A stretch of DNA of 64,000 nt from Escherichia coli. Lineage in GTDB: Bacteria; Pseudomonadota; Gammaproteobacteria; Enterobacterales; Enterobacteriaceae. The stretch lies in NCBI RefSeq assembly GCF_045037415.1, contig NZ_CP173438.1, one strand, 5' to 3'. Below, piece after piece: positions 15,605 to 53,461 of this stretch (position 1 is the first letter of the stretch; every line of letters starts with the position of its first letter). Position numbers and translations under genes: made by a program. Under the pieces are notes generated by a model. The model was given only the letters and a program-made list of their open reading frames with translations, ran no database searches and had not been told where the DNA came from.

Positions 15605-15619
15605 TTACCTTAAAGGTAT
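15605..15619. promoter_or_regulatory. Imperfect copy of prophage palindromic motif (TTACC-TTAAA-GGTAT) upstream of int
   Basis: One mismatch to TTACC-N5-GGTAA; 43 bp upstream of int start. Confidence 0.4.
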
Positions 15620-21171: not shown

Positions 21172-21218
21172 TAATTATGCGTATATGGTTTGATGTCAAT
21201 AGATATGAGTTAAAAAAA

Positions 21219-21290: not shown

Positions 21291-21875
21291 TTATTGTTTG
21301 TTTTTTTCGTTCTGGTTGATGACAAATTCAATGTAACTTTCGATCTTTGCTTTCTCGGTTTCGGGTAACAATGCGTAGCGTGAGCGGTCATAGTTGATAG
21401 TCGCAGGGTCGTGCGGGTGAATCAGTAGTTCATATCCGTGACGCCCGAATGCGGATGCAACATTCTCCAGGGTGGAAATGGAAACGCTGACCTCATTGTT
21501 TAACAGGCGGCTGATTGTCACCTGGGCGACGCCGGATGCGCGGTGAAGTTTTCCCTGAGTTGAAAGGTCGCGGCTTTCACTCATCCAGCGTTCCAGGTTG
21601 TGAGCTGCCAGCTGACCAATGTCGCTTGGGCCGACAGGCTGAAAACCTTCCTGAGAAAGCGAGCGATCGATATCAAGCCAGTTACGGGGTTTATTGGCGG
21701 CAGCTTCAATTTTTCGCGCAACCTGGTCGCCGATAACCTTCTTGCCAAGAGCCCAGCGGTTTACCAGATTTGCCTGAGTTCCAAGTTTTTCTGCCATCCG
21801 CGTCTGAACACCATTGAATTCACGGTCGATCAAGTCGTTGAGATTTTGCCTGCGGACGTCCTGGATACTTTTCAT
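21291..21875 (-). CDS. Prophage repressor-like regulator with two HTH modules and no peptidase S24 domain
   Basis: 194 aa; two HTH-like segments (..TRMAEKLGTQANLVNRW.. and ..ASGVAQVTISRLLNNE..); divergent from the Cro-like gene; no Ser/Lys autocleavage domain. Confidence 0.6.
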   Translation of the reverse strand: MKSIQDVRRQNLNDLIDREFNGVQTRMAEKLGTQANLVNRWALGKKVIGDQVARKIEAAANKPRNWLDIDRSLSQEGFQPVGPSDIGQLAAHNLERWMSESRDLSTQGKLHRASGVAQVTISRLLNNEVSVSISTLENVASAFGRHGYELLIHPHDPATINYDRSRYALLPETEKAKIESYIEFVINQNEKNKQ

Positions 21876-24276: not shown

Positions 24277-24296
24277 TAAAATTTTCTAAAATCTAT

Positions 24297-31219: not shown

Positions 31220-31296
31220 CTGGCGTGGCATGCAGGATTCGAACCTGCGACCAACCGCTTAGAAGGCGGTTGCTCTGTCCAACTGAGCTAATGCCA
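31220..31296 (-). tRNA. tRNA-Arg (anticodon UCU), phage-encoded
   Basis: Folded by hand: acceptor GTGGCAT/ATGCCAC, D-arm GCTC..GAGC, anticodon stem ACCGC/GCGGT with loop CTTCTAA (anticodon TCT), T-arm GCAGG-TTCGAAT-CCTGC, discriminator G and encoded CCA. Confidence 0.85.
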
Positions 31297-31619
31297 CAAC
31301 GCTGAGAGCACTTAGCCTGTTAAGGCGCCACACTTTGTCGCGGCTCCATAAATGCTCTCATCGTTGTACCCTCGTCTCTTCCGAGGCGTCACACCGAATC
31401 GCCGGGATGGTGAATCCCCGTGCGCGGAATAAAACCGCTCGACTTGCACATTCCGGCTACCTGGTTCGTTTGCCCGAGCAAGGGAGGGTGCCCCTTAAAC
31501 GTATCCAGACCGCTATCGGCGCATGTGCCATACGCCGTACTGCTCAAAATAAAAGCTCACTCCACCTGTTCAATTTAACGACAATCCAGTCAGGTTAGTA
31601 ACCGGAATGAACTCTTTGG

Positions 31620-45235: not shown

Positions 45236-47710
45236 ATGAGACAGGAATGTATACAAGCGGTCCAGCAGGCGGCGCAGCGCACGTTAACGGCGCGAGAAAT
45301 ACAGAACATTGAAGACCGCATTTATCGAAATATGCGCTCCATTGCTCGTGATGACCCGATGTCGTGGAGACAACTTTCCGAATCAGAGCGGCTATATCGT
45401 GCAGCACAATTGGCATCTGAAGAATTACAGCGAGAAGCGGCATTAAAGAAACGTCGTGTGGCCCTCACTATAGCCGCACGTCAGAGATTGGATAAATTTA
45501 TCAATAGCTATCAAGGGGCTGATGGGAAACTTGGCGCTCTTAACCGTACTATTGCTTTTAATGCAGACGGTAAATCGAATTTCCTCTCTGTTGAGTCCAG
45601 AACAAAAGCCACTCGTGATTATGCATTGAGTCAATTGCAAGAGGCATTTGAAGCAGTTGATCCTCGCTTTTTTGGCCTGTTTGAAGATGAAGCTGGCGTG
45701 CGTGACCTGGTATATGAAATGCGAGGGCAAAATACTGGCAATGCTAAAGCAAGAAAAGGTGCTAAGGCGTGGAGAGAAGTTACAGAGCTGCTGCGCCGCC
45801 GGTTTAATGATGCTGGTGGGGACATTGGCTATCTCGAAAACTGGGGGATCCCTCAACATCATTCTATGGAAAAGGTTGGGGCGGTATCAAAGGATAAGTG
45901 GGTTGGCGATGTTATAGGTAAGCTGGATCGCAAATATTATACCCGAGCCGATGGACAACTGATGAACGATGCCGAGTTGTCTGCATTTCTTGGAGAGGCT
46001 TATAACACGATAGCTACTGGTGGGCTGAATAAGCTTACTGATACCGGAATGCGAATTTCCGGCGCACGTGCTAACCGTGGTAATGCATCACGACAGATAC
46101 ATTTCAAAAATGCAGATTCCTATCTCCAATATCAACAACTTTATGGTGATCGCTCTCTATGGGAAATCATGGTCGGTCACCTGGAAGGTATCAGTAAAGA
46201 TATTGCTCTGGTGGAAACATATGGTCCAAACCCCGATCATGTTTTCCGCTCCCTTCTTGATCAGGTGAAGGCAGAAACGGCAACAGCTAACCCGAGTAAA
46301 ACCGGTAAAGTCGAGCGGCTGGCGAACAACACAGAGAATCTGTACAACTTTATTTCCGGAAAGACACAGCCTGTAGCGAATCCGCACATCGCGCGATGGT
46401 CTGACAATATCCGCAACTGGCTGGTTGCCAGCAGACTCGGATCCGCGTTGCTGTCATCGTTCTCTGATCTTGGAACCATGTATCTGTCTGCGAAGGTTAC
46501 CAACCTTCCAATGAACCAGTTATTCCGCAACCAGCTTGAAGCTATGGACCCAACGAACCGTACAGAACTTGCGCGGGCGCGCCGCGCTGGTCTGGCGATG
46601 GAATCTCTACTTGGCAGCGTTAACCGCTGGGCGATGGATAATATGGGGCCGTCTGTGTCTCGTTGGGCTGCAACGGCGGTAATGCGTGCCAGTGGGCTTA
46701 CAGCATGGTCAGATGCGCACAAGCGCGCCTATGGCGTAACCATGATGGGAAGCCTGGGAGAAGTAGTGTCACGGACACCAGACCTTCGTAGCCTCGATGA
46801 TTCTGATTTTCGTATCCTGAAAAGCAAAGGGATTACTGACACAGACTGGAGCGTATGGAAGCTGGCGCAACAGGAGGACTGGGGGAACGGCAATAATACG
46901 ATGCTGACACCGGAAAGCATTATGCGTATCCCTGATTCAGCAGTTAAACATCTTGGTGAGCCTGAACGCGTGAAATTTGAGGCAATGCGTAAACTGCTCG
47001 GTGCCGTAACTGAAGAAGTTGATATGGCTGTTATTACACCGGGAGCACGTGAGCAACTGATAACCGGTTCTGGTATTCAGCGTGGAACATGGAAAGGTGA
47101 ATTAACGAGAAGTGTTTTCCTGTTTAAATCGTTCCCTATCTCGGTGGTTATGCGTCACTGGTCACGCGCTATGGGTATGCCGTCTGCTGGTGGGCGTGCG
47201 GCATATATTGCGACGTTTATTGCCAGTACGACCATTCTTGGCGCTTTGTCGCAGCAACTTAACGACCTTGCGTCTGGTCGTAATCCTCGCGAGATGACAG
47301 GAGAAGATGCTGCTAAATTTTGGCTTGGTGCTCTACTGAAAGGTGGTGGTCTTGGCCTTTACGGTGACTTTTTATTGTCAGATCACACTAGGTACGGAAG
47401 CGGCGCGCTGGCGTCGATGCTTGGCCCGGTAGCTGGTCTGGTTGATGACGTAGTGAAGATTGCTCAGGGCATACCGTTAAATGCTGTGGAAGGGAAGAGT
47501 GAGCAGACTGGTGGTGATCTGGTGAAGCTGGGGAAAGGTTTGATGCCTGGTGCGAATCTCTGGTACTTGAAGGCGGCTCTCGATCACATGATCTTTAACC
47601 AGATGCAGGAGTATTTTTCACCAGGCTATTTGCGTAAAATGGAGCAACGTTCGAAGAAAGAGTTTAACCAGACATACTGGTGGCGACCACAGGATGTCAC
47701 TCCGCAATAA
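45236..47710 (+). CDS. Large internal virion / ejection protein
   Basis: 824 aa last gene of the tail/core operon. Confidence 0.45.
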   Translation: MRQECIQAVQQAAQRTLTAREIQNIEDRIYRNMRSIARDDPMSWRQLSESERLYRAAQLASEELQREAALKKRRVALTIAARQRLDKFINSYQGADGKLGALNRTIAFNADGKSNFLSVESRTKATRDYALSQLQEAFEAVDPRFFGLFEDEAGVRDLVYEMRGQNTGNAKARKGAKAWREVTELLRRRFNDAGGDIGYLENWGIPQHHSMEKVGAVSKDKWVGDVIGKLDRKYYTRADGQLMNDAELSAFLGEAYNTIATGGLNKLTDTGMRISGARANRGNASRQIHFKNADSYLQYQQLYGDRSLWEIMVGHLEGISKDIALVETYGPNPDHVFRSLLDQVKAETATANPSKTGKVERLANNTENLYNFISGKTQPVANPHIARWSDNIRNWLVASRLGSALLSSFSDLGTMYLSAKVTNLPMNQLFRNQLEAMDPTNRTELARARRAGLAMESLLGSVNRWAMDNMGPSVSRWAATAVMRASGLTAWSDAHKRAYGVTMMGSLGEVVSRTPDLRSLDDSDFRILKSKGITDTDWSVWKLAQQEDWGNGNNTMLTPESIMRIPDSAVKHLGEPERVKFEAMRKLLGAVTEEVDMAVITPGAREQLITGSGIQRGTWKGELTRSVFLFKSFPISVVMRHWSRAMGMPSAGGRAAYIATFIASTTILGALSQQLNDLASGRNPREMTGEDAAKFWLGALLKGGGLGLYGDFLLSDHTRYGSGALASMLGPVAGLVDDVVKIAQGIPLNAVEGKSEQTGGDLVKLGKGLMPGANLWYLKAALDHMIFNQMQEYFSPGYLRKMEQRSKKEFNQTYWWRPQDVTPQ

Positions 47711-47929: not shown

Positions 47930-48310
47930 ATGAGAAAAGTATTTTTGATTTTTGGATTTATGCTTCTCGTTGGATGCCAGTCAGCTGCACAGTTTGAAAG
48001 AAATATGCTTACGTGGCGCGGGCAGAGTATAGACGCAATGGTTCAGCAGTGGGGGTATCCTCAGGGAGAGCTTACATCTCCAGATGGAAACAGAGTGTAT
48101 GTTTACTCAAGCTCTGGTAGTTATAACGTACCACAAACCACAACGTATAATACTACGTCTAATCTAATTGGTAATACTATATATTCAAACACATACGCAA
48201 CAACTGATGGCGGTTATACACTCCATTTCAGTTGCTCTGTTTACGTTGAGTTTGGTGCTGATAAGATTATTAAAAATGTTACATGGCGCGGTAATAATTG
48301 CGTTGCGTGA
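47930..48310 (+). CDS. Lipoprotein (accessory gene)
   Basis: SD aggggtaa; lipoprotein signal peptide MRKVFLIFGFMLLVGC with lipobox LVGC; Ser/Thr/Tyr/Asn-rich mature part. Confidence 0.6.
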   Translation: MRKVFLIFGFMLLVGCQSAAQFERNMLTWRGQSIDAMVQQWGYPQGELTSPDGNRVYVYSSSGSYNVPQTTTYNTTSNLIGNTIYSNTYATTDGGYTLHFSCSVYVEFGADKIIKNVTWRGNNCVA

Positions 48311-48341
48311 CATGTCACAGGCCGCTTTCGCGGCCTTGTTT

Positions 48342-48503
48342 TTAACGAATGCCACCGCCACCCGGGCGGGAATCCGCAGAACGCCCACCGCAGCGGGAGC
48401 CGTCAGCAGCAGTGTCGCTGTCGTGCTGACAACGACCGGCAAAGGCCTGAGTTGAAGCTACCAGAGACAACAAAACGAACAGTGCAGCAAATGCTTTTTT
48501 CAT
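48342..48503 (-). CDS. Small secreted peptide candidate (53 aa), low confidence
   Basis: MKKAFAALFVLLSLVASTQAFA signal-peptide-like start followed by a Gly/Arg/Asp-rich tail; lies in a short GC-rich segment. Confidence 0.25.
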   Translation of the reverse strand: MKKAFAALFVLLSLVASTQAFAGRCQHDSDTAADGSRCGGRSADSRPGGGGIR

Positions 48504-48574
48504 TGTGAAATTTCCATCTATAAGCCACCTCAATGTGGCGTCAATGAGTGTAGCACTGACTTTTGTTTCGTCCA

Positions 48575-48597
48575 CAAAAAAGCCCGCGCTGCGGGCT
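48575..48597 (-). terminator. Rho-independent terminator after the 210-aa unknown gene
   Basis: On minus strand agcccgc-agc-gcgggct followed by TTTTTT. Confidence 0.6.
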
Positions 48598-48601
48598 TCT
48601 A

Positions 48602-49234
48602 TTAATGCAGTTTATCTTTGCTTATAACCAGTAGTCTGTGGGTATGCACATCTTTATCACTGCCCCAACAGAAATCAGCCCACTGGCTATAGAAATCATC
48701 CCATGATGTCATGAAGCTAAGAGGTCTATCTTCTTCAGAGCCATCTGAAACGTATACATTATATCCTGGGGTGTTTATAGCCCAAGAAATCATTCTTTCC
48801 CAGAATCTTCTCCCATCGATTGTTTGTTGCTCATCAGATACAACGATCGCATATTGCTCTAGGAAGAACTGAAAAAAAATCTGAGGCAAACCATGAACAG
48901 CACGGTCATGAATAACATTAGGCGTACGCCATACCATGATCTGCGTACATGTTCTTTTGGCTTCGACGATATCTTCCCGAAAGATTAACTTAACCGCATA
49001 CACCGTTTCTGGAGTATCGCTGGTAGTAATCATTCTGTAATGATCGCCATTACAAGATTTTACAAGGCGATAACCATAAGGTGTTGTGAATCCCGGAAGA
49101 ACGAAATCAACCACACCTTTCGCTAAGTAGCTTTCGGTGTGACTAGTGTTCTTCTCAGACATGTTCAGTTTTCTATCGAAATCTGCTTCTGGGATAATGT
49201 ATGGCATCGCTTTTCTTGTTGTATTTGTTCTCAT
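48602..49234 (-). CDS. Hypothetical protein (210 aa) of unknown function in the accessory locus
   Basis: SD gggagga before ATG; own promoter region with palindromic motif and own terminator; no recognisable family. Confidence 0.5.
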   Translation of the reverse strand: MRTNTTRKAMPYIIPEADFDRKLNMSEKNTSHTESYLAKGVVDFVLPGFTTPYGYRLVKSCNGDHYRMITTSDTPETVYAVKLIFREDIVEAKRTCTQIMVWRTPNVIHDRAVHGLPQIFFQFFLEQYAIVVSDEQQTIDGRRFWERMISWAINTPGYNVYVSDGSEEDRPLSFMTSWDDFYSQWADFCWGSDKDVHTHRLLVISKDKLH

Positions 49235-49293
49235 TTCGTCCTCCCATGTTTGGCTACAGGACGCGTTTTGAAGGGAAGATTAAAAATGCTTTC

Positions 49294-49308
49294 TTACCCT
49301 TGAGGTAA
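49294..49308. promoter_or_regulatory. Palindromic operator-like motif TTACC-CTTGA-GGTAA
   Basis: Perfect copy 60 bp upstream of the 210-aa gene start. Confidence 0.55.
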
Positions 49309-49380
49309 TAGTACGCTATTCACCCCCAGTCTGCAATCTGTACAGAATTATTTAAAGGCACATCCCTGTGCCGCCGCCCG

Positions 49381-50037
49381 TCAGAAGAACCCTGCCTTGT
49401 CGTTGATGTACTCCGCGTGCGTCTGGATATCACGCAGGCATTTGCTCACACCAACGATGTAGCAGAACATGGTGGTCAGCTCCGCCGCCGCGCCCGATAC
49501 GTCGTGCCCGTCGTCCTGTAACTGGTTCAGCAGATTCATCAGCAGTGAGTTCTCCGTCAGGCCGAGAACACCAGACGGCGAGTGAATCAGGCTGCGGTAG
49601 CCGGGCTTCAGTGGGGCACTGTATTCTTTTTTGTCTTCCAGCTTGATCGCCTCCATAATGGCGGGCATGAAGCCTGACAAGACCTTCTCCACTTTTGTTT
49701 CTTGTTGTCTTAAACGTTTCTCGCATTCAATGAAGTAGCGTCGCACCTGGCGACCTTTTTCGTTACGCTCGACCATCGCCAGCTCTTTGGCTGTATCAAG
49801 GGTGAGGTGGTACTCTTTGCGGTTGTGGCCGCCTCTACCAGATGTTTGCTTTCCCAAATTGGAAAGCAAAATATAGTCTTGATTTTCAATGAATTCGTAT
49901 TCTGATATGCGATTTGTAATCCATGCTGCAAACACCTTTTTAACACCTAAAAAAGCGTGCAGATCGCGGGCATTACAAAGTAGGGCTGTTTCGTTAGATA
50001 TAGTGCCGTTGAATACGGGGATGAGTTGAGCGTTCAT
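49381..50037 (-). CDS. Antirepressor (AntA-like N-terminal domain plus KilAC-like C-terminal domain)
   Basis: N-terminus ..[36 protein letters not shown].. matches the AntA/AntB pattern as recalled; C-terminal about 80 aa homologous to the downstream 85-aa protein. Confidence 0.65.
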
Positions 50038-50310
50038 GATGGCGTCTCCACTTAGCGAATTACATCACCACCGCTGAGAACCAATCAGATGGTGGTGAAC
50101 TGAACGGAGTTGGTCTTACCGGCCTAAGTGGTACCGGCGTCCTTTCGGACCCCCATTCAGCCCACCATAATTCTGGCATGACTGTGCTATACGCATAAAA
50201 AAACCACGTCTGGCGTGGTATGCGCCACTTAGTAATCCGGGAGAACCAATCCCGGCACTGGATTTTGCCAGTGCCCGATTACTATGGCACAAGAGGAGTG
50301 CGATGTAAAT

Positions 50311-50325: not shown

Positions 50326-50356
50326 ATATAAGCACTCCATTTGGTAATTTCAAACC

Positions 50357-50614
50357 TTATCTGGTTTGTTTTCGTAATTGTTCGGCACAATAGTCGAGAT
50401 GTGTTTGCAGATCCTGCATAGACATCTGTGAGCTGGTGACGTAGTTAATCAGTGCAGTCAGTTCGGCAAGTGGGCCATCGACATTAAATCCATCCTTATC
50501 GAGATCCCGGAGTAATTTCATCAAGTGCGATCCCTCCACCAGTGACCTGACGCCTCCCGGCGTGTGAATCCTTTCGGTAAATCCGTCTTCCAGTGGATAG
50601 TGATACTGCTGCAT
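50357..50614 (-). CDS. Small antirepressor-like protein (KilAC-like domain only, 85 aa)
   Basis: MQQYHYPLEDGF..; about 45 percent identical to the C-terminal domain of the 218-aa antirepressor (shared ..IH(S/T)P.GV..L.E.S.LM.LL..L..DG..V.G..AELT..Y..DxQTH..Y); LexA box 22 bp upstream. Confidence 0.6.
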   Translation of the reverse strand: MQQYHYPLEDGFTERIHTPGGVRSLVEGSHLMKLLRDLDKDGFNVDGPLAELTALINYVTSSQMSMQDLQTHLDYCAEQLRKQTR

Positions 50615-50635: not shown

Positions 50636-50651
50636 CTGTATATTTATACAG
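50636..50651. promoter_or_regulatory. LexA (SOS) box CTGT-N8-ACAG
   Basis: aaCTGTATATTTATACAGta, near-perfect match to the E. coli LexA consensus; overlaps a TATAAA -10-like element of the minus-strand promoter. Confidence 0.75.
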
Positions 50652-50809: not shown

Positions 50810-53461
50810 ATGACGGTTTCAACCGAAGTTGACCACAACGAATACACCGGTAACGGAGCTACGACATCATTTCCGTATACCTTCCGTATTTTCAAAAAAT
50901 CCGACCTGGTTGTTCAGGTGTCTGACCTGAACGGGAACGTAACAGAATTGGTTCTGGATACTGACTACACAGTAACCAATGCTGGAGGATATAATGGCGG
51001 TAATGTAATTCTGTCGAAGGCGTTGGCTAACGGTTATCATATTTCTATATCACGAGAGCTCCCGGTTACGCAGGATACTGATTTGCGTAATCAGGGTAAG
51101 TTCTTCGCTGAGGTACATGAAGACGCGTTCGATAAACTGACAATGCTTATTCAAAAGTGTTTTTCATGGATGAGGTTAGCACTTATAAAACCAAGCATTC
51201 TGGCTAACTATTATGATGCAAAAAATAATAAGATATCAAATCTAGCAAATGCCACTGACAGAAACGATGCTGTCAATAAAGGTTATGTTGATGATCTTTT
51301 TACTGGAGGTGTAACGCCTACATCTAACAGCGCTAAAAACGATATTTTTACAAATCACCAAAGAAAGATTGTAGCTACGATGCCGCTTCTTTTTCCTGAA
51401 TATGATGCGATTATGGCTGCTAACCCGTCAGCAACTTATATGTATCCTCAAGGATTCTGCGTTAGCGAAGATTTGATATACATCACTTATCCATTTGAGC
51501 CTAAACAGACGAATAATGTCGTCGCAGTATTTAACATATCTGGTATTTATCAAGGTTATTTCTATGTTCAGGCTGGCGGCCCAGGCTTCGCTGCTGAAGG
51601 AATCGTGGTTACGTCAGACTATGGCCCCAAAAAAATGTTTGTTGGTCACACAAACGGAATACTGCGTGAATTTAATATGGAGGGGGCATTATACGGAAGC
51701 AATCTGCCTCTTGTACAAAACCATGATGTTGGATTATTCAACCAGTTCAGCTACAGAAGAGGTATATGGCTCGTTGAGCAGAATGCGCCAGAAGTAGGAC
51801 AGAAAATCACAAGAACTGTACTTGCAGTGTTCGACAGTGGTTTCAATCGCCTGTCAACTATAACGCTGCCGTTACATGATGTTGGGTATGTAACTAAAAG
51901 CACCTCACCTTATGCGCCTTATTTCAACAAGCGTCAGGGTATTGCGGTAGGTGATAACTACTTTGTCTGCGGCTATGGCGGCTTCATAGCTGATGGGGCA
52001 GGAAGCGCAGGATATAACGAATATCAGGGCAGCAAAGTTTTTAACCCTGACGGTACAAAGCGAACTGAATCAATGCTTCATCCTCAGGCCATGATGGATT
52101 TAATGAAAGCCGCAGGATTGAACGTCACTCGCATAGAAAATGAAGGCGTTTGTGTTTCTCAGGATGGAAAATCCATTTATTCACTTTACATTCATCAGGA
52201 AAGAACTGGCTCTGAACCTTACAATTCAGGTTTGGTTATTTTCGAAGATTTCTCCACTGATAAAGATGCTATCGATTTTACACCTGCATCCAGGCTTTAC
52301 CGCGGATTTGATATCGATCACGCGAGCATTGGGGTATATCCCCGTAGTGCGAAGGGGATTGTTAACCCTGTAGATGGTACGTTGTTCACTAACATGACTG
52401 AAATTCTTCGCTATATGCAGGAGATGAGTCAGAAGGCATTTAATTTTTACACAGGGACTGTCAGCATTGCTGATATATCTGGCGTGGCAATCCCTTCCAG
52501 CACATATGTTGAAATACTGAATGCGAATAATCAGACTTTTATAGTCAACTATTATTCATCTGATAGTGGCATTAGTTATTTGGTTGCAACTAATCCTTCT
52601 GGTGACTTTGTATTTGTGCGCCAGCGACCGGCACAGTGGGCATCTAACTTAACCATTCAGCAAAACGCAGATCCTGATACAAACCAATTAAACCGCATCA
52701 CTGCATCATCATATGCCGGTGCAACTACAAACTCTCAGAAAATATTGGTCCTTGACCAGCAGGCTACAGCTAGCGCAAATAGCTTGGTATTGGGCGGTAG
52801 TTCTTCTGTGTTTAGGTCTGCCACCACGGTGGATATTGCATGCAACAGCGACCCGACAGCATTGGGAGGAACCATACGCTGGCGGTTTTATGATACAGGT
52901 CTTCGCCCGTTTGCTGACAATACCTATAATTTTGGTCAGGCATCGTTTCGTATTAAAGACGCCTACTTTGCAAATGCCCCAACCGTTTCATCAGATGCCA
53001 CGCTGAAAACCAATCCCGAGGCAATATCAGATTTAAGTGAAATGCTTTCTTCTGATAGAGACAGCATTCTTGATGCCTGGGGCGATATTTCTGTTGTGGC
53101 GTATCGATGGCTCGACGCTATATCCATGAAGGGCGATGGTGCCAGATGGCATTTTGGCGTCATGGCTCAGCAGGTAAGGGATGTATTCTTGGCGCACGGA
53201 ATTGATGGAACCAGATTTGGCCTTCTTTGCTATGACGAGTGGGATGATATTTTTGAGCCGGTAATCGCGACTAAAGAGATTACCGATACGTCTGGTGAGT
53301 TGGTCACCGTCGAATATGACACCGGAGAACAGAGGCTGGTTAAAAAAGCGGGTAGTTCATGGGGTATACGGCCTGACCAGTGCGCTTGGCTTGAGGCTGC
53401 ATATCAGCGCCGTCGATGCGATCGTATTGAAGAGCGACTCGAACTATTGGAATCAAAATAA
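50810..53461 (+). CDS. Tailspike / tail fiber with C-terminal intramolecular chaperone (peptidase S74-like) domain
   Basis: 883 aa; conserved phage fiber N-terminal anchor (..YTGNGATTSFPYTFRIF..); C-terminal ..DAWGDISVVAYRWLDAI..GDGARWHFGVMAQQVRDVF.. matches auto-cleaving chaperone domains of tailspikes as recalled. Confidence 0.8.
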   Translation: MTVSTEVDHNEYTGNGATTSFPYTFRIFKKSDLVVQVSDLNGNVTELVLDTDYTVTNAGGYNGGNVILSKALANGYHISISRELPVTQDTDLRNQGKFFAEVHEDAFDKLTMLIQKCFSWMRLALIKPSILANYYDAKNNKISNLANATDRNDAVNKGYVDDLFTGGVTPTSNSAKNDIFTNHQRKIVATMPLLFPEYDAIMAANPSATYMYPQGFCVSEDLIYITYPFEPKQTNNVVAVFNISGIYQGYFYVQAGGPGFAAEGIVVTSDYGPKKMFVGHTNGILREFNMEGALYGSNLPLVQNHDVGLFNQFSYRRGIWLVEQNAPEVGQKITRTVLAVFDSGFNRLSTITLPLHDVGYVTKSTSPYAPYFNKRQGIAVGDNYFVCGYGGFIADGAGSAGYNEYQGSKVFNPDGTKRTESMLHPQAMMDLMKAAGLNVTRIENEGVCVSQDGKSIYSLYIHQERTGSEPYNSGLVIFEDFSTDKDAIDFTPASRLYRGFDIDHASIGVYPRSAKGIVNPVDGTLFTNMTEILRYMQEMSQKAFNFYTGTVSIADISGVAIPSSTYVEILNANNQTFIVNYYSSDSGISYLVATNPSGDFVFVRQRPAQWASNLTIQQNADPDTNQLNRITASSYAGATTNSQKILVLDQQATASANSLVLGGSSSVFRSATTVDIACNSDPTALGGTIRWRFYDTGLRPFADNTYNFGQASFRIKDAYFANAPTVSSDATLKTNPEAISDLSEMLSSDRDSILDAWGDISVVAYRWLDAISMKGDGARWHFGVMAQQVRDVFLAHGIDGTRFGLLCYDEWDDIFEPVIATKEITDTSGELVTVEYDTGEQRLVKKAGSSWGIRPDQCAWLEAAYQRRRCDRIEERLELLESK

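Follow-up and report, generated by a model that had tools for sequence, protein, structure and literature searches.

The question raised by this locus is what a small protein of no assigned function is doing in what looks like its own transcription unit within an Escherichia coli prophage, and when it is made. We examined a stretch of 64,000 nucleotides (contig NZ_CP173438.1), called the window below, on which an earlier note made from the sequence alone had reported an open reading frame at 48602-49234. The coding sequence (48602..49234, minus strand, ATG start) is indeed present and encodes a 210-aa protein (WP_001260052.1; PHROG 1349) of 24.6 kDa with a pI of 6.0 and a GRAVY of -0.45. The enrichment of tryptophan and phenylalanine in the C-terminal half that had been remarked on is real, with five of the six Trp residues within residues 106-210 and 8 of 12 Phe residues in that half. 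No transmembrane segment is expected, as had also been stated, the highest 19-residue Kyte-Doolittle hydropathy being 1.05, and the protein has no signal peptide or other secretion signal. The gene has a GC content of 40.8%, versus 49.1% for the prophage.

The window also occurs, without a difference, in the chromosome of E. coli strain 447. The prophage is of the phiV10 type (Uetakevirus), occupies approximately 15600 to 55400, and is inserted downstream of guaA. Its repressor (21291-21875; WP_000836290.1) has two helix-turn-helix regions and is 100% identical to those of phiV10, phiv142-3, and vB_EcoP_ZX5, all of the genus Uetakevirus. A minus-strand block, bounded by the last injection-protein gene (45236-47710) and the tailspike gene (50810-53461), has the following order along transcription: an 85-aa gene, an IsrK/C4 leader, ant, the 210-aa gene, and a 53-aa gene. 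The upstream neighbor of the 210-aa gene, which lies outside the cassette, is the antirepressor gene ant (49381..50037, minus strand), labeled "phage antirepressor Ant" in RefSeq and matching PHROG 377 ("anti-repressor Ant") with an E value of 2.8e-66. The ant leader (50088-50287, minus strand) matches the Rfam family IsrK at 50197-50274 (60.9 bits versus a gathering score of 50) and the C4 antisense RNA family at 50088-50172 (61.2 bits versus 45), besides a subthreshold match to the c4 a1/b1 target family. Because its leader matches both IsrK and C4, ant can be assigned to a P1-type immI (c4-ant) module of a phiV10-type podovirus prophage.

Several other features of this neighborhood were recorded. 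A terminator-like hairpin lies inside the ant leader at 50219-50203. The 85-aa gene (50357-50614, minus strand), upstream of the leader, shares homology with the C-terminal portion of Ant; PHROG 450 matches the 85-aa protein and Ant residues 135-216 alike, making the former a free-standing "Ant C-domain." Just upstream of the 85-aa gene is a perfect 16-bp palindrome, CTGTATAAATATACAG (50636-50651), which is unlike the main operator and could be bound by a second regulator. The 53-aa gene (48342-48503, minus strand; WP_000708858.1) encodes a protein with a hydrophobic N terminus that belongs to PHROG 14503 ("membrane associated protein," moron category). It follows the cargo slot described below in most of the related prophages examined, whatever the cargo, and is missing from phiV10 and from one related prophage, L007. 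Farther along, a small gene on the opposite strand (47930-48310, plus strand; PHROG 3716) encodes a lipoprotein-like product with a signal peptide and an LLVGC motif, and has a strong terminator of its own (48319-48336; z = -4.28). Its place is taken by other genes in related prophages, so that it looks like a second variable slot. Elsewhere in the prophage, a tRNA-Arg gene (31221-31297, minus strand) lies between the terminase and portal genes, beside a minus-strand gene of the Gp49 family.

The 210-aa gene has the parts of a complete transcription unit. A Shine-Dalgarno sequence, GGGAGG (49240..49245, minus strand; read from the sequence), lies 5 nt 5' of the ATG, and the 5' untranslated region would be about 57 nt long. 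Downstream, a Rho-independent terminator (about 48574..48600, minus strand) consists of the core GCCCGC-AGC-GCGGGC, an A-U pair extension, and a T run. It is absent from the output of a simple terminator scan. Folding nonetheless gave -15.3 kcal/mol with a z of -3.26, none of 200 shuffles being its equal, and this hairpin followed by a U run bears out the intrinsic terminator that had been pointed to downstream of the gene. At the other end, a weak hairpin right after the ant stop codon (49357..49372, minus strand; -10.1 kcal/mol; z = -0.33) was equaled by 68 of 200 shuffles and is unconvincing as a terminator. Read-through from ant into the 210-aa gene is therefore possible.

The promoter is less straightforward. 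The consensus scan calls none between ant and the 210-aa gene, and the autonomous promoter claimed earlier is the least secure element of that observation. However, a candidate -35 hexamer, TTGCAG (49331..49336, minus strand), which falls below the threshold of that scan, and a candidate -10 hexamer, TACTAT (49308..49313, minus strand), form a site that agrees with the consensus at 8 of 12 positions and shares its geometry with three other promoter-like sites in the prophage. The palindromic operator that had been placed at 49294 is an exact TTACC-N5-GGTAA palindrome (49294..49308; TTACCTCAAGGGTAA in the minus-strand reading) that begins 22 nt downstream of the -35 hexamer, its first base being the final T of the -10 hexamer. 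The gene lives up to its earlier description as a stand-alone unit: it has a promoter-like site, a ribosome-binding site, and a strong terminator to itself, and homologues in three unrelated backbones likewise bring their own ribosome-binding site and terminator.

The same operator recurs throughout the prophage. Allowing one mismatch, TTACC-N5-GGTAA occurs at 18 sites in the window versus 1.13 expected, and none of 100 shuffles reached 18. Copies include those at 15605, 21157, 21219, 21931, 21979, 22316, 24262, 24324, 28457, 28475, 31620, 49294, 50311, and 50691. Two of these (21157 and 21219) lie between the repressor stop codon and the next leftward gene, and two (21931 and 21979) between the repressor and a cro-like gene; operators on both sides of the repressor gene constitute the classical OL/OR arrangement. 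Three more are in the ant block, and others stand ahead of the integrase gene, of a resolvase-like gene that comes after the replication genes, of the terminase region, and of the structural operon. This distribution suggests that one repressor directly controls many promoters across the phage genome. At four sites, the operator lies exactly 22 nt after a TTG-type -35 hexamer and shares its first T with the end of the -10 hexamer. These are a PL-like promoter (TTGACA...AATTAT at 21199, minus strand), a promoter of the same -35/22-nt/operator geometry (TTGATT...TTTAAT at 24296, plus strand), the promoter of the IsrK/C4-ant leader (TTGAAA...TATATT at 50353, minus strand; 50353-50325), and the promoter-like site before the 210-aa gene (TTGCAG-17-TACTAT, 49336-49308, minus strand).

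An operator that spans -7 to +8 of a sigma-70 promoter is in a repressing position. Since the phage operator takes this position on the promoter of the 210-aa gene, repression in the lysogen is likelier than constitutive expression, and the gene, like ant, is probably held down in the lysogen and made once repression lifts. The earlier statement that it is expressed from the prophage is thus probably wrong here, the general operator beginning at the last base of the -10 hexamer just as it does at the PL-like promoter at 21199. We infer this repression from the layout of the sites, and we likewise infer the timing of expression, the enzymatic activity, and the biological role that are discussed below. 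In vB_EcoP_ZX5, overexpression of the identical repressor lowers the transcripts of the lytic endolysin and holin genes by >99.9% (PMC9782041).

Repression need not be tight. There is one operator at the 210-aa gene versus two at the promoters at 21199 and 24296, and a lone operator may repress only partly. The slot of phiv142-3 contains another gene, orf10, for which qRT-PCR showed transcripts in cultures of the lysogen. In serum, its level went up 2^4.1-fold, along with that of most genes of the prophage (PMC7724020), and the rise may reflect spontaneous induction. Besides, the regulation may differ between backbones. In phage LLS, TACTAT-TTACC-N5-GGTAA travels with the gene, and the rest of the LLS genome has no other exact copy of the operator. 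The cassette may be constitutive in LLS-like phages, in the style of a classic moron.

The position just after ant receives different genes in different phages. In phiV10, the slot is empty, nothing following ant, and the ant region is of the same kind with weaker homology (about 89% identity over part of it), while phiv142-3, with an ant region that is 98.5% identical, has small ORFs there. E. coli prophages with the same backbone hold a YafO-family toxin gene, a DUF4760 gene, or a pair of genes for 62-aa and 110-aa proteins in the slot. When the slot variants are aligned, they are nearly identical between the end of ant and the far edge of the palindrome, the promoter-like site included, and similarity stops immediately beyond the palindrome. 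The combination of TACTAT and TTACC-N5-GGTAA is found in most of the retrieved relatives with cargo in the slot and in phage LLS, and it is absent from phiV10. The flanks, at least, are matched in 340 of 5,426 complete E. coli genomes, and the full cassette is present in 92, the carriers being mainly human extraintestinal and Shiga-toxin-type isolates. The 210-aa gene is an optional low-GC accessory cassette, and our confidence in its anatomy, its optional nature, and its control by the operator is high. Records named "Phi05_2388 B" were considered as Stx phages, and this was rejected; they contain a phiV10-type repressor and are fragments of the same kind of prophage. No match was obtained with PADLOC for the alternative cargoes or their neighbors. 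About 300 nt precede the YafO-family toxin gene in the slot (L005 3001-3302, L007, and L028), and they contain an unannotated small ORF, MRNEKLQMRRAQAAARR..., whose product could be the antitoxin of that toxin, in which case the pair would lie behind the same repressor-controlled promoter.

We next consider the protein family. The 210-aa protein matches PHROG 1349, which has no assigned function, from end to end (E = 3e-113). The earlier opinion that it belongs to no family holds for Pfam, NCBIfam, and PADLOC, yet not for PHROG. Neither the protein itself nor any of 80 family members matched Pfam; NCBIfam gave no match to the protein, and PADLOC-DB v2 no family match at E values of ≤1. Sequence and profile searches of the PDB with close and broad alignments returned chance matches only. 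Close relatives are confined to the Enterobacterales and are all labeled "hypothetical" or "phage protein," and a profile search of a set of 5.8 billion proteins for informative names or domain fusions again retrieved only these two labels. A literature search on the accession, the PHROG number, and DUF4760 found nothing useful, and the prophage-defense proteins GiPD474 and HepS of recent papers proved unrelated to the 210-aa protein.

An exhaustive HMMER search of 1.8 billion representative proteins found 297 clusters (counted at 50% identity) at E values of ≤1e-3. The members are nearly all single-domain proteins of about 200 aa. In one exception, the domain is fused to an MqsA-type zinc ribbon (Pfam PF15731); another is 504 aa long and has an unassigned N-terminal part. 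The 504-aa fusion and the zinc-ribbon fusion come from sequencing runs with adjacent accessions (SRR28157685 and SRR28157683). In a comparison of 80 diverse members, conservation is highest at N29, Y79, Q98, W102, R103, D134, T138, G141, F144, W145, Y161, D164, W190, G191, and S205. A Cys/His catalytic triad of C96, H197, and H199 was considered and rejected; it is conserved among close relatives only, C96 being V, C, or A in the broad family and H197 and H199 varying.

Homologues occur in very different elements. LLS and LLS-like lambdoid prophages of Enterobacter carry one (84% identity) between the lysis genes (Rz) and terS, Serratia prophages carry one (63% identity) between the tail chaperone and tape measure genes and beside an antirepressor/arc pair, and P1-like plasmids of Citrobacter carry one (47% identity) between late operons on the opposite strand. 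All three are preceded by a noncoding leader with GGAGG and have a strong terminator that directly follows the stop codon, and a promoter-like site was seen in two of the three contexts. An operator common to the Serratia homologue and the neighboring ant/arc genes was sought and discarded, no repeated palindrome being found, and no C1 operator was recognizable by eye upstream of the P1-like copy. The family is also found on 48 plasmids of Aeromonas, Shewanella, Pantoea, Photobacterium, and other genera, and the jumbo phages Atu_ph07 and BCSR5 carry distant relatives. On one metagenomic contig (L019), two tandem paralogues (1195-1788 and 1819-2418) stand in a row of co-oriented uncharacterized genes; PHROG annotation of the metagenomic contigs with distant homologues was uninformative. 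On the Shewanella plasmid pHD6416-NDM (L023; 6280-10026), a member is lined up in one orientation with a umuD/umuC-like pair and two uncharacterized genes, each for about 190 aa; the two uncharacterized genes are not family paralogues according to an HMM search.

The predicted structure adds a weak indication of fold. An AlphaFold2 model based on a 35-sequence alignment was confident (pLDDT, 82.3; pTM, 0.79), with residues 1-9 predicted to be disordered and residues 10-210 predicted to form an alpha/beta domain. In Foldseek searches against AFDB50 and BFVD, uncharacterized family members came first, followed by GNAT proteins at E values of about 0.01 with TM-scores of ≤0.38. Structure prediction with a fold search, which the earlier note had proposed among its checks, gave only this weak GNAT resemblance; the description as a protein of unknown function stands, with a weak GNAT-like fold added to it. 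The GNAT fold runs in the order beta1-alpha1-alpha2-beta2-beta3-beta4-alpha3-beta5-alpha4-beta6, and its motif A contains a pyrophosphate loop, Q/R-x-x-G-x-G/A, between beta4 and alpha3. The predicted secondary-structure order of the 210-aa protein can, in our reading, be mapped onto this topology. Residues 112-117, with the family consensus A-[LV]-x-G-[LF]-[AP] and Gly115 in 46 of 80 sequences, would then take the place of the pyrophosphate loop ahead of alpha3, and the counterpart of motif B would be T-x-x-G-x-x-F-W at 138-145. In hhalign, the 112-117 stretch was placed on the motif-A helix of a phage GNAT with a probability of 2.5%; the GNAT profile was built from only two homologues, so that this comparison is nearly uninformative. 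No acetyltransferase family (e.g., PF00583 and PF13508) matched the protein or the 80 members at E values of ≤0.1. We therefore call the protein weakly GNAT-like in predicted fold and do not file it as a GNAT.

A structural role can be set aside. Homology to a virion structural or assembly protein, which the earlier note had named as a finding that would speak against its view, was looked for, and there was none in PHROG, Pfam, or fold searches. The 210-aa protein is not structural, because it is absent from phiV10, varies in position, and is present on plasmids. The cassette looks in every respect like an accessory gene with a part in the conflicts of mobile elements and hosts.

The explanation that we prefer, tentatively and at somewhat less than an even chance, is that this is a repressor-controlled accessory cassette for an early effector that acts on a component of the host or of a rival phage, in counterdefense or host takeover. 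The gene would be an optional "moron" of a phiV10-type temperate podovirus, sitting in a cargo slot just downstream of ant. Its own sigma-70-type promoter would be covered from -10 to about +8 by the operator of the main repressor, and it would have its own ribosome-binding site and terminator. In a resting lysogen, the repressor would keep it mostly off; synthesis would start when the phage infects a naive cell or the antirepressor induces the prophage, perhaps also through read-through from ant. The product would be a soluble, single-domain early effector that binds or acylates its target in favor of the phage. Three things favor an early effector: a repressor operator lies on the promoter, lytic jumbo phages have relatives of the protein, and paralogues occur in tandem. 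The role taken by itself is possible but doubtful. The genes that replace it in the slot resemble toxin or toxin-antitoxin genes, and this is as compatible with defense as with counterdefense.

The alternative that survives best is a defense or superinfection-exclusion gene that works in the lysogen, its promoter being leaky or weakly repressed and its protein blocking incoming phages. We consider this unlikely, though a serious contender. The cassette does have moron features (its own promoter and terminator, low GC, and presence/absence polymorphism), and its slot lies in an accessory region between injection-protein genes and the tailspike gene. P22 has sieA, an exclusion moron, and its immI region at the comparable position. 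The alternative cargoes (YafO-like toxin, DUF4760, and the small two-gene pair), the occurrence of the gene in LLS-like prophages at the lambdoid moron site after the lysis genes without another exact operator copy, and the classic moron position of the homologue in P1-like elements point the same way, as does the transcription of orf10 of phiv142-3 in lysogen cultures (PMC7724020). However, the operator is in a repressing position on the promoter, no PADLOC model matches the protein, and a membrane segment of the kind found in SieA-type exclusion proteins is lacking. The lytic jumbo-phage relatives and the small co-oriented gene arrays with tandem paralogues are also more typical of counterdefense.

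Somewhat less probable is that the GNAT-like scaffold is nonenzymatic and acts by binding alone, so as either to inhibit or sequester a host protein or small molecule or to regulate the antirepressor circuit. The conserved polar residues N29, Y79, Q98, R103, D134, T138, and D164 speak against it, being what a catalytic or ligand pocket would also show, and the link to ant that a circuit regulator would have is missing in the lambdoid, P1-like, and plasmid contexts. The most far-reaching form of the early-effector explanation is a long shot: a widespread, unrecognized family of divergent GNAT-like enzymes would be made at entry or induction, here with the phage repressor governing them directly, to inactivate chemically a component of host immunity, and the slot would be a plug-in site for early "weapons" behind a common promoter-operator adapter.

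A growth-arresting toxin like the GNAT toxins AtaT and TacT, released on derepression for host shutdown in lytic growth or for abortive infection, is very improbable. No antitoxin-like ORF is adjacent, the 57-nt leader contains no ORF, and the downstream 53-aa gene belongs to the backbone with any cargo. Moreover, LLS-like and P1-like elements appear to carry the gene with an unregulated promoter of its own, an arrangement not to be expected for a potent toxin. Least probable of all, by a little, is a modulator of host fitness or virulence (lysogenic conversion) without a role in phage conflicts: the cassette does occur mainly in human extraintestinal and Shiga-toxin-type isolates, and a different slot gene of phiv142-3 has been linked to serum resistance (PMC7724020). 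Against this, the protein lacks a secretion signal, the operator predicts silence in the lysogen, and members of the family also occur on environmental plasmids and in enterobacteria of insects and plants, with distant ones in jumbo phages.

Morons with an uncharacterized protein are familiar as a kind, and the family already existed as an unannotated PHROG. What is new is the evidence for a moron tied to the prophage repressor through a promoter-operator adapter common to interchangeable cargoes, together with the breadth of the family and its weak GNAT-like fold. The case corrects a common shortcut, in that a promoter and terminator of its own do not guarantee expression of a prophage gene in the lysogen, the operator of the prophage itself lying on the promoter here. 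If the prediction is true, it offers a cheap experimental entry into an uncharacterized family that reaches about 2% of complete E. coli genomes, Enterobacter, Klebsiella, Serratia, and Yersinia, P1-like plasmids, and NDM plasmids of Aeromonas and Shewanella, and that may act in phage-host or phage-phage conflict. The conserved adapter can furthermore serve as a marker for mining accessory genes in phiV10-type prophages.

Compared with known systems, the cassette differs from the inner-membrane exclusion proteins SieA and Imm in that its product has no transmembrane segments, and from type II GNAT toxin-antitoxin systems (AtaT, TacT, and KacT) in that no RHH-type antitoxin gene is adjacent. 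The neighboring ant, with its C4/IsrK-matching leader, resembles the immI locus of P1 (c4 antisense RNA-icd-ant) and IsrK of Salmonella Gifsy-1, and the promoter of the ant leader has the same operator in the same position as that of the 210-aa gene. The 210-aa gene, however, stands outside the conserved module, phiV10 having the ant region without it. Lambdoid morons as defined by the Hendrix laboratory (bor and lom of lambda and gp15 of HK97) are classically expressed from the repressed prophage. The cassette is like them in being a single extra gene with its own promoter-like site and terminator, an atypical base composition, and presence or absence among close relatives, but the prophage's own operator overlaps the promoter of the 210-aa gene, predicting the opposite expression. 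Some anti-CRISPR loci in the late region of temperate phages have a repressor-controlled promoter, and AcrVA5 is a GNAT-type anti-CRISPR. Although the 210-aa protein shows no sequence similarity to the known anti-defense proteins with which it was compared, and although the cassette contains no Aca-like regulator gene, so that control would come from the main phage repressor, it shares with such loci a small accessory gene among late genes, an early-type promoter of its own with a repressor site, and swappable cargo at a fixed slot, and AcrVA5 provides a precedent for a GNAT-type fold directed against host immunity.
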